A DNA stretch of 64,000 nt from Coraliomargarita sp. (GCA_965216325.1 OZ244160.1:672001-736000), one strand, 5' to 3'; counted from the stretch's first letter, positions 36,416 through 45,146 are shown. A program made the numbers and translations. The notes: generated by a model from the sequence alone, not told the origin.

Positions 36416-36760
36416 TCAGCCGAAAGTTTTGCCATTCCAGCCCCATGTGTTGGGTGCCACATTGTGGAAGCGGATGTAAATGCGCTCGGCTTGGATGTCT
36501 GTAGTCAGGCGTATGCGTTCGCAGAGTTCCGGAGACAGGCGCTGTGGCGCGTCATCGGGCAGTCGTAATGAGCAGAGGTCGACGAAGATGGTGGGGGCTT
36601 CAGTTCCAGCCATGGTCATCTTGGCGTTGGTCCAGCTGGTCATCACGTAGTCTTCCGACTTATCGAGCAGCTCTGCGACCGCTTTTGAGAGCGTCAGCAG
36701 GCAGTTCGACTTTTCAGGGTCGGTGAGTGCTAGGTTCGAGGTGACTTGTATCAATGGCAT
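36416..36760 (-). CDS. MIF-family (phenylpyruvate tautomerase-like) protein
   Basis: Pro directly after Met (MPLIQVTSN); motifs KSEDYVM, RIYIRF, WGWNGKTF; 114 aa. Confidence 0.9.
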   Translation of the reverse strand: MPLIQVTSNLALTDPEKSNCLLTLSKAVAELLDKSEDYVMTSWTNAKMTMAGTEAPTIFVDLCSLRLPDDAPQRLSPELCERIRLTTDIQAERIYIRFHNVAPNTWGWNGKTFG

Positions 36761-36825
36761 ATGAGTAAGCTAACGCTAACTTGCTGTGAGGCAACTGAGT
36801 GGGGGTGTTTCAATGGTATTGTGAG

Positions 36826-36903
36826 CGTAGGGCTTCTGCTTGCAGGATGCCGTCGTTTATGAGCCCCCCTGATTAGCGGCGTCGTGCAAGCACGAGCCCT
36901 ACG
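36826..36903. repeat. GTAG-type REP doublet (third subfamily)
   Basis: CGTAGGGCTTCTGCTTGCAGGATGCCG ... CGGCGTCGTGCAAGCACGAGCCCTACG, an inverted pair. Confidence 0.75.
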
Positions 36904-36909
36904 AGGTTG

Positions 36910-36940
<31 letters not shown>

Positions 36941-36954
36941 ATGCGTGCTTAATT

Positions 36955-37226
36955 GGGGTTCCTCGTCGAATCGGGTGAAAGGCAGAGATTCATGCTCGGG
37001 GTGCGATCACTTTGCCCCACGATAGGCAACAAGTAGCCCGACGGCAACTGGCAAACTTGAGCAGGACAGGAATGTCCTGCCTCCTTTCGAAAACATGGTC
37101 TCGCCAAAGGAGGACGGACATGGTCCGGTCCACTCCGTGCCCGGTCTTGTCGTTCCACTCGGAACCTGTCCGTCGCTTTAACCCGCACAGCCATGTAGGG
37201 ATTCCCCGGTAATCGACGAGGACCCC
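36955..37226. ncRNA. Unassigned 272-nt structured element (candidate ncRNA or MITE)
   Basis: Termini GGGGTTCCTCGTCGA / TCGACGAGGACCCC pair with each other; nested long-range stems and at least five internal hairpins; no credible ORF. Confidence 0.55.
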
Positions 37227-37258
37227 AAAAAAGCCCCCGGTTTTCACCGGAGGCTTTT
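37227..37258 (-). terminator. Rho-independent terminator after serC (bidirectional)
   Basis: AAAAAAGCCCCCGG-TTTTCA-CCGGAGGCTTTT. Confidence 0.85.
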
Positions 37259-37279
37259 GTATTCAATTTGATGGCTGGT

Positions 37280-38425
37280 TTAGCTTTGGATCTCAGCGAA
37301 GGCCCAGTCGAGCCATGGGAGTAGGGCTTCGATGTCGGCGGTGTCAACGGTTGCGCCACCCCAGATACGGAGACCGGCTGGTGCGTCGCGGTAGCTGCCG
37401 AAGTCGTAACCGACGCCTTCCTTGTCGAGCAGGCTGACGAGTTGCTTGGCTTTCGCGGCTTGCTCTTCGTCGGAGAGCTCCTGATACCAGGGTGCCACGA
37501 TCTTCAAGCAGATCGATGTGTTGGAAATCGTCGCAGGATCTTCGGCTAGGAACTCGATCCAGTCGGTCTTTTCGACCCAATCAGCGATTGCCTTGAGGTT
37601 GGCTTCGGAGCGCTCAATCAGTGCCGGCAGACCGCCGATGCTTTCTGCCCAGCGAAGGCCGTCGACTGCGTCTTCGATACAGAGCATGGAGACGGTGTTG
37701 ATGGTGGCACCGCTGAAGATGCCCTTGATGAGTTTGCCGCCCTTGGTGAGGCGGAAGATCTTTGGTAGTGGCCATGCCGGAGTGTAGGACTCAAGGCGCT
37801 CAATTGCGCGTGGGCTCAACACGATCATGCCGTGGGCACCTTCGCCACCCATGACCTTTTGCCAGGACCAGGTGACGACATCGAGCTTGCTGTAATCGAT
37901 GTCCATTGCAAAGACCGCAGAAGTCGCGTCGCAAATGGTGAGACCTTCGCGATCGGCAGGGATCCAGTCGAGGTTCGGAACCTTTACGCCGGATGTGGTG
38001 CCATTGTAGGTGAAGACCACGTCATTGCTGAAGTTGATCTTGGAGAAATCCGGAAGCTTACCGTAGTCGGCTTCGTGCTTGGTGACATTGTCGAGCTTGA
38101 GCTGCTTGACGACGTCGGTGACCCAACCAGAGCCAAAAGATTCCCAAGCACACATGTCGACGCCGCGTGCGCCGAGCAGGGACCAGAGTGCCATTTCAAC
38201 TGCACCGGTGTCGGATGCTGGTACGATACCGCAGACGTAGCCCTCTGGGAGTCCGAGAATGGAGGAGGACTTTTCAATAACTTCTTCGATGCGCGCCTTA
38301 GCAGGCTTTGCGCGGTGAGAACGGCCTACCAGTGCGTTGTTGAGCGCTTCAAGCGTCCAACCGGGGCGCTTGGAACAAGGGCCGGATGAGAAATAGGGAC
38401 GAGTTGGTTTTGTGTCTGGTTTCAT
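37280..38425 (-). CDS. serC: Phosphoserine aminotransferase (Methanosarcina/alphaproteobacterial-type)
   Basis: Motifs [40 protein letters not shown] (PLP lysine), [13 protein letters not shown]. Confidence 0.95.
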
Positions 38426-44182: not shown

Positions 44183-45050
44183 CTCATCTACAGTGCGATC
44201 GTTTGTGGAATTTGTAGGCCCCAGTTCGGTTGTTTGTTTAGAAGGAGCATGTGCTGTAAGTGTTGAGCAACTTGCTGCGCGGTTTCAGTTGTCTATTATC
44301 GACGGTTCGTCACTGGCGGCTGCTAAGCCGAAGCACTTGCGGCGTTTTCTCTTGGAGCAATTGGGCAGTGAGGCTGGCTTTGTCTTTTTGTATGATGCGG
44401 ATGGCTTGCGGCTGTATGCGACTGGCGAACTGGATCTCAATGTTCGTGCAGATTTCTACAGTCCAAGTGTTACCTATCGGCGTAAGCAGGGCGGCGGGCG
44501 TGGCCAATTGATTGCACGCGCAGTTGGGTTTAAGGCCAACTATGCGCCGAAGGTATTGGATGGAACGGCTGGACTCGGGGGCGACGCCTTTGTGCTGGCG
44601 AGCTTGGGTTGCCAGGTTCGCATGTGTGAGCGTGTTCCTGCGGTGCGTGCCCTGCTTGAAGACGGATTGGTTCAGGCTCGTAAGTATGCCGATGCTCAGG
44701 ATGCACAGCTTGGGGTGGTCTTGGATCGCATGGACCTCGTTCAAACTGACACGGTCTCCTATCTAAAGACACTTCCTGCAGCTCAGCGACCCGATGTGAT
44801 TTATCTCGATCCGATGTTTCCTGAGCGGACAAAGTCGGCCCTGGTCAAAAAGGAGATGCGAGTCTTTCACGATCTGGTGGGTGCCGACGCGGATGCGGAT
44901 CAGTTGCTCGAAGCTGCTTTGCCAGTTGCGCTGCAGCGTGTGGTGGTCAAACGCCCCCGGTTGGCGCCAACCTTGAAAGGTCCTAAACCGAGTAATGTGC
45001 TCGAAGGGAAAACGAGTCGCTACGATATTTACCAGTCCTCGAATGCTTAA
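44175..45050 (+). CDS. rsmJ: 16S rRNA m2G1516 methyltransferase
   Basis: Motifs [44 protein letters not shown]. Start uncertain. Confidence 0.9.
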
Positions 45051-45108
45051 TCGCAATCCTACTCCTGATCTTAATCTACGGTGTGAGAGATTATGAATAA
45101 GATTAAGA
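45046..45108. repeat. Inverted hexamer-periodic hairpin
   Basis: CTTAATCGCAATCCTACTCCTGATCTTAATCT ... AGATTATGAATAAGATTAAGA. Confidence 0.6.
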
Positions 45109-45146
45109 TGTTGTTCTGCCATGAACCTTCTTAACTCTCTCTTGAT

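Follow-up and report, generated by a model that had tools for sequence, protein, structure and literature searches.

Positions 36918-37225 of the window (the whole stretch of 64,000 nt of Coraliomargarita sp. DNA analysed here) very probably represent a 308-bp non-coding MITE that derives from the ISL3 family and lies inserted in the A/T run of the serC terminator. ISL3-derived MITEs are an already known and ordinary kind of element, and the present one is a further example. The suggestion in the initial annotation that a non-autonomous mobile element might be found at terminators is borne out by genomic copies, by terminal inverted repeats (TIRs) of the ISL3 type, by an 8-bp target duplication, by empty sites and by terminator hairpins beside five of five elements.

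Boundaries, copies and target site of the element

The region had been described as an unexplained structured unit of 272 nt at 36955-37226. Its inverted ends are real (arms 36953-36969 and 37213-37229, 17 nt, 88% complementary), a 15-nt end motif matches twice in the window against 0.23 matches expected in a pattern search, and the hairpins of the unit stand as well; its boundaries do not, as the true unit, 36918-37225, starts 37 nt further left. The proposed check for more copies yielded three full ones in the genome that contains the window (G000, 3.06 Mb), with identities of 100% (copy A, that of the window), 97% (copy B) and 95% (copy C). When the copies were aligned together with their flanks, similarity began ~37 nt left of 36955 and ended at the right end originally given; the flanks were mutually unrelated, and a distinct terminator-like hairpin followed each copy. 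An inverted-repeat search placed TIRs of 25 nt, 80% complementary, at 36918-36942 (R1) and 37201-37225 (R3), and a further copy of this ~25-nt repeat unit, R2, lies internally in direct orientation relative to R1 (Table 1). A coding element is ruled out: none of the three mechanical ORFs within the element matches a Pfam family at E up to 0.1, and a 5-nt insertion in copy C shifts and breaks the frames.

Table 1. Features of the element, its locus and its relatives in the host genome. Positions are those of the window unless marked G000.
Feature	Position	Strand	Observation
Whole mobile unit, probable 308-bp MITE (copy A)	36918..37225	.	three G000 copies; ORFs without Pfam family
Copy B	G000 1811092-1811399		97% identity to the window copy
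Copy C	G000 2007535-2007841		95% identity; left tip truncated
R1, left terminal inverted repeat, plus 11 nt	36918..36953 (R1 = 36918-36942)	+	33/36 nt as in the G001 IS end; pairs with 37201-37225
R2, third (internal) copy of the terminal repeat	36955..36983	+	GGTTCCTCGTC motif at G000 708957; inverted repeat with the right end
R3, right terminal inverted repeat	37201..37225	-	copy B version 24/25 nt as in both inverted repeats of the G080 IS
Left copy of target duplication, 8 bp, CAAAAAAA	36910..36917	.	single C+A7 before GCCCCC in the empty allele
Right copy of target duplication, CAAAAAA, one A short	37226..37232	.	minus-strand U-run of the serC terminator
serC intrinsic terminator hairpin	37229..37258	-	13-nt arms, 92%; terminator-like site call
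serC (phosphoserine transaminase), upstream minus-strand neighbour	37280..38425	-	NF002841, 679 bits, E 1.4e-204
MIF/tautomerase-like gene, downstream minus-strand neighbour	36416..36760	-	PF01187, E 3.2e-10
REP2 palindrome pair, left of the MITE and outside it	36826..36903	.	27-nt arms, 85% complementary
REP1 palindrome GCAGGACAGGAATGTCCTGC with CTCCTTT/AAAGGAG stem	37061..37121	.	half of a BIME-like pair; inverted repeat
REP1-like stem GACGGACA/TGTCCGTC around M2 (37120-37174)	37113..37174	+	inverted repeat; M2 covariance model 65.9 bits
Element of the same inverted-repeat class, 244 bp	G000 44868-45111		
Element of the same inverted-repeat class, ~970 bp	G000 467922-468890		

With the boundary moved to 36918 an 8-bp target duplication appears, so that the earlier statement that no clear duplication was present no longer applies. 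At copy A it is imperfect, with 8 nt on the left and 7 nt on the right. Copy B has the exact 8-mer ATAAAAAA at both flanks, and its site in same-genus genomes holds a single 8-mer without the element, reading ATGAAAAA in G001 and ACAAAAAG in G002. The site of copy A is likewise without the element in G001, where a single A-run reads CATCAAAAAAGCCCCCGG. Copy C lacks ~8 nt of its left tip as well as the left duplication, and its site is also empty in G001. The comparison of empty with filled sites, proposed at the outset, returned clean empty sites in same-genus genomes: G001 is empty at all three MITE loci and G002 at site B.

Metagenome data point in the same direction. In run X5, a 3073-nt contig fuses position 36911 to 37227 and omits 315 nt, with 7 nt that fit either side. 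The depth of the MITE interior is ~2.6-4.5 times that of the flanks in runs X5, X7 and X9, and some loose ends found at the MITE continue into the flanking sequence of copy B or copy C, others into additional, different flanks. Presence/absence polymorphism at the MITE loci is thus seen both in relatives and in the metagenome. As side observations, the spacer at the position of copy C holds a ~150-nt microsatellite of the GGGATAYGGGATWT type instead in G003 (contig C2, L072), and an unrelated 168-nt insert in G002.

That the element adjoins the serC terminator, as first described, was confirmed by the hairpin and by the protein-family match of serC; the gene beyond serC encodes an 860-aa type IA topoisomerase. 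The terminator is 100% identical in G001, which is without the MITE, and by this comparison it is older than the insertion and still intact. The presence of the MITE makes the serC-MIF spacer ~430 nt longer than in the same-genus relative. The REP2 pair to the left of the element is also absent from the orthologous G001 spacer. The REP2 family (core ~GTAGGGCT..GCAAGCACGAGCCCTAC) has dozens of partial copies in G000, including the region 3007675-3008382, where REP2 stands on both flanks of a Y1_Tnp gene (3007977-3008234).

Parent insertion sequences and association with terminators

The initial annotation had seen no related transposase. The ends of the MITE, however, match those of ISL3 insertion sequences (ISs) in two relatives. 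G080, a member of another genus, carries a 1301-bp IS (L084) with the duplication AAAAAAAA and inverted repeats that agree with R3 at 24 of 25 nt. Its 398-aa transposase contains the domains DDE_Tnp_ISL3 (PF01610, E 6.9e-67), HTH_Tnp_ISL3 (PF13542, E 2.2e-14) and Zn_ribbon_ISL3 (PF14690, E 1.7e-07). In G001, which belongs to the same genus as the host, contig C13 carries a 1302-bp IS (L121) whose frame is 71% identical to the G080 transposase over residues 3-398 (E 6.8e-198). The end of this IS on the side of the transposase stop agrees with the left 36 nt of the MITE at 33 of 36 positions; the IS has the duplication AAAAAGAA, and a terminator hairpin adjoins it. By this match, the leftmost 36 nt of the MITE are what is left of the parental ISL3-family IS on its transposase-stop side. 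In this regard, TGCTTAAT, a candidate -10 box, was rejected as such and is instead part of the relic IS end that bears the transposase stop.

The host genome has an ISL3 IS of its own, present in three copies of 1301 bp, with inverted repeats that start GGTTCTTCGTAAATTCC, the duplication TCAAAAAT and a 412-aa transposase carrying the same three domains (DDE_Tnp_ISL3, HTH_Tnp_ISL3 and Zn_ribbon_ISL3). Its tip agrees with that of the MITE exactly over the first 10 nt and at ~14 of the first 17, and its transposase shares 29% identity with the cognate enzyme seen in G080 and G001. A PF01610 search that covered all but 24 kb of G000 found no gene for the cognate transposase, only the three copies of the 29%-identical type. 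The sole trace of the cognate enzyme in G000 is a 37-residue relic at 2198469-2198579, with 65% identity to residues 282-318. Two of the resident IS copies, at 137027-138327 and 1281126-1282426, are inverted with respect to each other and have exchanged their 8-bp flanks (ATAAAAAG / TAATTTTC), which points to a ~1.1 Mb chromosomal inversion by recombination between them.

More broadly, the terminal repeat was searched for in 101 family genomes. Matches came from 12 genomes, which represent 5 of the 20 genera, while the control gave 2, and several of the matches fall at contig ends. Relatives of the cognate transposase occur in Coraliomargarita sp., Pelagicoccus mobilis, an Opitutaceae bacterium and two Vibrio species; their ISs have 8-bp A/T duplications (AAATTTTA, TTTTTTAT), with a hairpin and T-run at the junction in three of them (L115, L117 and L120). 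A/T-rich 8-bp duplications of the ISL3 type were found for the resident IS, for those of G080 and G001, and for further IS copies. At G000 803596-804308, three tandem units of 345-bp period each contain a sequence weakly similar to the IS end (GGTTCATTGTTACCTTCCAGGAA, 5 mismatches); this tandem repeat is probably unrelated.

The repeat class of the MITE extends to other non-autonomous elements. Besides the two further G000 elements of Table 1, several solo ends occur in that genome. In G003, a 118-bp element of the same inverted-repeat class sits at exactly site B. In G013, an element of ~300 bp, of the same class and with an unrelated interior, adjoins a terminator and has the exact CAAAAAAA duplication; it was considered as an orthologous serC insertion and rejected, as a tblastn search of its locus (L035) for serC and MIF gave no match and the terminator is a different one.

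A hairpin with T-run adjoins all five complete non-autonomous elements of the repeat class in G000. As background in the same genome, a hairpin is found at 291 of 1397 T-runs of at least 6 (21%) and at 96 of 341 T-runs of at least 7 (28%). At the tested flank, none of the three resident IS copies and none of three solo or other ends in G000 had a hairpin. The association with terminators could reflect targeting or the survival of harmless insertions, and the comparison with T-runs fits both. Terminator-like sequences have been found over-represented immediately upstream of ISs, as stated in the available passages of PMC13548323, and a preference for A/T-rich targets is given for the ISL3-type IS31831 in those of PMC1590026. 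The parts available of PMC9208149, PMC4133298 and 10.1101/2024.01.18.576133 hold nothing on the targets of ISL3 MITEs.

A separate cluster at G000 465060-468950 has ISL3-type left ends at 465122, 466578 and 467922 and one right end at 468890. A terminator T-run immediately precedes each left end, with genes for secreted proteins downstream of it, and two of the left ends, 1344 bp apart, share identical 41-nt contexts. The cluster may consist of nested or tandem non-autonomous elements with passenger genes.

On the model of the ISL3 family, a DDE transposase supplied in trans would bind and cleave at the 25-nt repeats R1 and R3. Insertion would take place with an 8-bp stagger, the target being an A/T-rich 8-mer; in the present case this is the A/T run at the base of the serC terminator. 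Repair of the staggered cut would duplicate the 8-mer and regenerate the terminator U-run. As the target 8-mer is itself the terminator A/T run, six U residues would have been restored behind the serC hairpin, and serC termination should be unaffected. These catalytic steps we infer from the family; present-day mobility of the MITE is putative. The R1-R2...R3 anatomy further suggests a nested origin of the 308-bp unit, in which an older 272-bp MITE (R2 to R3) would have landed at the AT-rich sequence TTAAT, immediately inward of an IS end, R1 and R3 afterwards being taken by the transposase as a new pair of ends.

Place among known mobile elements

The closest published counterpart is a MITE of Microcystis aeruginosa, described in the available passages of PMC11448079 as 187 nt long, with GGCTCTTCG ends and 8-nt duplications, and attributed to ISL3 transposases. 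The tip at 36918, GGTTCTTCG, matches the GGCTCTTCG motif as printed there at 8 of 9 positions. As far as that description goes, the two elements share a non-coding sequence, an ISL3-type tip, an 8-nt duplication, a predicted stem-loop and insertion polymorphism among strains. They differ in that the present element belongs to another host lineage and has an unrelated interior, an extra internal repeat and a nested cargo of REP-like palindromes and M2; in addition, its three copies all lie on terminator A/T runs, and the search of the host genome turned up no cognate transposase.

With the ISL3 ISs themselves (those of G080 and G001 and the resident one) the element shares the repeat class, A/T-rich 8-bp duplications and a frequent location beside terminator T-runs. 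Unlike them, it is a MITE without a transposase gene that keeps only 36 nt of the left end and ~25 nt of the right. Its interior hairpins come from a REP-like family with members on both sides of a Y1_Tnp gene, and in this they resemble REP/BIME sequences mobilised by a RAYT; REPs, however, are units of ~20-40 nt without DDE-type TIRs or 8-bp duplications, and here they are cargo or neighbour and not the mobile unit.

Tn3-derived TIMEs have a length of ~260 bp or more, a GGGG-type repeat start, AT-rich targets, 38-bp inverted repeats and 5-6-bp duplications, according to the available passages of PMC4133298. To the extent of that account, the present element resembles them as a small non-autonomous unit with a GGGG-type start and an AT-rich target, but the 8-bp duplication and the ~25-nt inverted repeats of the ISL3 type rule out a Tn3-derived TIME.

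Bacterial class C group II introns insert directly beside intrinsic terminator hairpins. In contrast to them, the present element has no intron RNA domains in the Rfam search and no RT, and it carries TIRs together with a target duplication; it is a DNA transposon derivative and not a terminator-targeting retroelement.

Together, these comparisons define a clade of MITEs and ISs that accumulate on terminator A/T runs in a marine bacterial family. The clade is a source of assembly breaks, as the TIR matches at contig ends indicate, and of strain polymorphism. The present element is a further instance of the published pattern of ISs and their derivatives beside intrinsic terminators, in which the U-run is regenerated and the insertion is probably harmless.

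Predicted fold, interior cargo and the M2 motif

The stretch 36955-37226 has a strong predicted fold, with -120.4 kcal/mol (z -4.24) on the minus strand and -117.2 kcal/mol (z -4.52) on the plus strand; none of 200 shuffles folds as well on either strand. The fold arises from the terminal repeats and from palindromic cargo, namely a REP-like pair and the M2 hairpin. The base of the 'rod' pictured in the initial annotation is R2 paired with R3, and its 'multibranch head' corresponds to this cargo, a REP-like palindrome pair and M2, both of which occur elsewhere in G000. The hairpins GTTCC-GAGT-GGAAC and CGGAC-CAT-GTCCG noted there are those of 37113-37174, the REP1-like stem and M2. Other parts of the drawing fared less well: the TTGCC/GGCAA side hairpin is present in copy A and broken in copies B and C (GACAA), and the inner stems CATG/CATG, GTGCG/CGCAC and CGACGG/CCGTCG gave no significant repeats in the inverted-repeat search.

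REP1 (GCAGGACAGGAATGTCCTGC) occurs 19 times in G000 when up to 2 mismatches are allowed, and 16 of these sites are not in a MITE copy. Together with its partner GACGGACATTCYTGTCCGTC it flanks a RAYT-like Y1_Tnp gene at 1561930-1562172 (region 1561419-1562382), so that the interior hairpins belong to short genome-wide palindromes of the kind that flank a Y1_Tnp gene. REP1 pairs also lie within a ~200-nt repeat (for example at 199039, 1648618 and 2471235), which is found in G002 as well.

Two readings that dispense with a transposon can be weighed against these data. A stand-alone gene for a large structured ncRNA, a 6S-like rod with an expanded head triplicated in the genome, was the other proposal of the initial annotation, and the strength of the predicted fold and the terminator hairpin after each copy speak for it. 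The terminators, however, differ between copies and occur without the element in relatives, which assigns them to the host sites, and the element is bounded by IS ends and by target duplications, with empty sites as their counterpart. A DNA search found a full-length element in none of 40 relatives. The G-U pairs once taken to suggest selection of a minus-strand RNA do not support that argument, since both strands fold equally well, and the ~10 differences among the three near-identical copies include no compensatory changes. As had been noted, hallmarks of known RNAs are absent. In the whole window, Rfam 15, whose families include 6S, tmRNA, RNase P, SRP, group II intron domains, ribozymes and HEARO, returned at gathering score only a tRNA at 2899-2982. 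An E-value scan of 36700-37350 gave a best match of 25.4 bits, where the gathering score is 60, its terminator-like sub-threshold matches (21-25 bits, far below threshold) being centred on the terminator. With neither an Rfam match nor strand asymmetry nor covariation among copies, we consider an ncRNA gene of this kind very improbable. An sRNA gene with its own promoter was likewise rejected, as 36600-37400 contains no sigma-70-like site. The probability of a chance palindrome, or of a cluster of REP/BIME sequences that lacks transposon ends, is in our view practically negligible: two REP-like families are indeed abundant in G000, which has 16 Y1_Tnp matches at ~12 loci, but such a cluster leaves three sharp-edged 308-bp copies of 95-100% identity, the 8-bp duplications and the IS-type TIRs unexplained. 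The identification as a MITE removes a false ncRNA candidate from the annotation.

The cargo motif M2 deserves separate attention. It spans 55 nt and consists of TGGTCCGRTY, a variable hairpin, YCGGTCTTGTCG and then CTCGGAAC, with an invariant single-stranded GGTCTTGTCG. The window has two sites, that of the MITE on the plus strand (37120-37174) and one on the minus strand behind a tRNA (2781-2842). Its hairpin covaries: 95.3% of the cells are paired, pair 9-32 is GC in 17 and AU in 7 with none broken, and 13 cells show double changes against 3.5 in shuffles, a value that none of 500 shuffles reaches. The M2 covariance model finds 41 matches in G000 and matches 27 of 36 other family genomes, but none of 24 genomes from 24 other families of the order, and the motif has no match in Rfam.

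Many copies of M2 follow genes for stable RNAs. Among 38 nhmmer matches in G000, 11 follow the 3' end of a tRNA at a distance of no more than 300 nt, and 10 of these are co-oriented with the tRNA gene, at 32-152 nt, against ~0.2 expected by chance. Among 30 loci from five other genera, four lie at 34-42 nt behind tRNA genes and one at 47 nt behind a tmRNA gene, all five co-oriented and coming from four of the five genera sampled. Many other copies are antisense, shortly behind the stop codons of converging genes (by crude ORF calls). The strands of the G000 copies show no replichore pattern by eye, and M2 as the REP of a RAYT was rejected, as a comparison of positions by eye places no copy closer than 1 kb to a Y1_Tnp locus of G000. 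M2 could be either a selfish hairpin repeat or a 3'-end signal.

These properties bear on whether the MITE has been exapted, in the sense that the element or its M2/REP cargo acts as an RNA (a structure that forms or stabilises 3' ends, or an sRNA) spread by transposition. Conservation of M2 across the family, its compensatory changes and its co-oriented position behind tRNA and tmRNA genes would favour this, as would an RNA library (X19) in which one 247-nt contig spans 36957-37203 at depth 2.8 with flanks at 0. That signal, however, is a single low-depth contig of a multi-copy repeat, shows neither strand nor transcript ends and could stem from DNA carry-over, and four further presumed RNA runs with the same species label have next to no matching words. 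The M2 of copy A is antisense to both serC and the MIF-like gene, the region is devoid of promoter-like sites, the three MITE copies show no compensatory changes among them, and a hairpin needed at the DNA level would yield the same covariation. On balance, we regard exaptation as unlikely. An idea of similarly low probability is that the MITE serves as the vehicle of a functional RNA or transcription module, M2 being a putative new signal for 3'-end formation or processing of stable RNAs, or else a bidirectional terminator of a non-canonical type; if true, ISL3-type MITEs would spread M2 to the 3' ends of new genes. Our preferred reading remains an ordinary ISL3-derived MITE with M2 as part of its cargo.

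M2 itself could matter more than the element that carries it, as a family-wide covarying hairpin that trails tRNA and tmRNA genes and is without an Rfam family. One of its copies in G000, at 1429753-1430040 (L106), forms part of a tandem duplication of 111-nt period that comprises the 3' end of a tRNA-Met gene together with M2 and resembles an att-site-like repeat at a tRNA 3' end.
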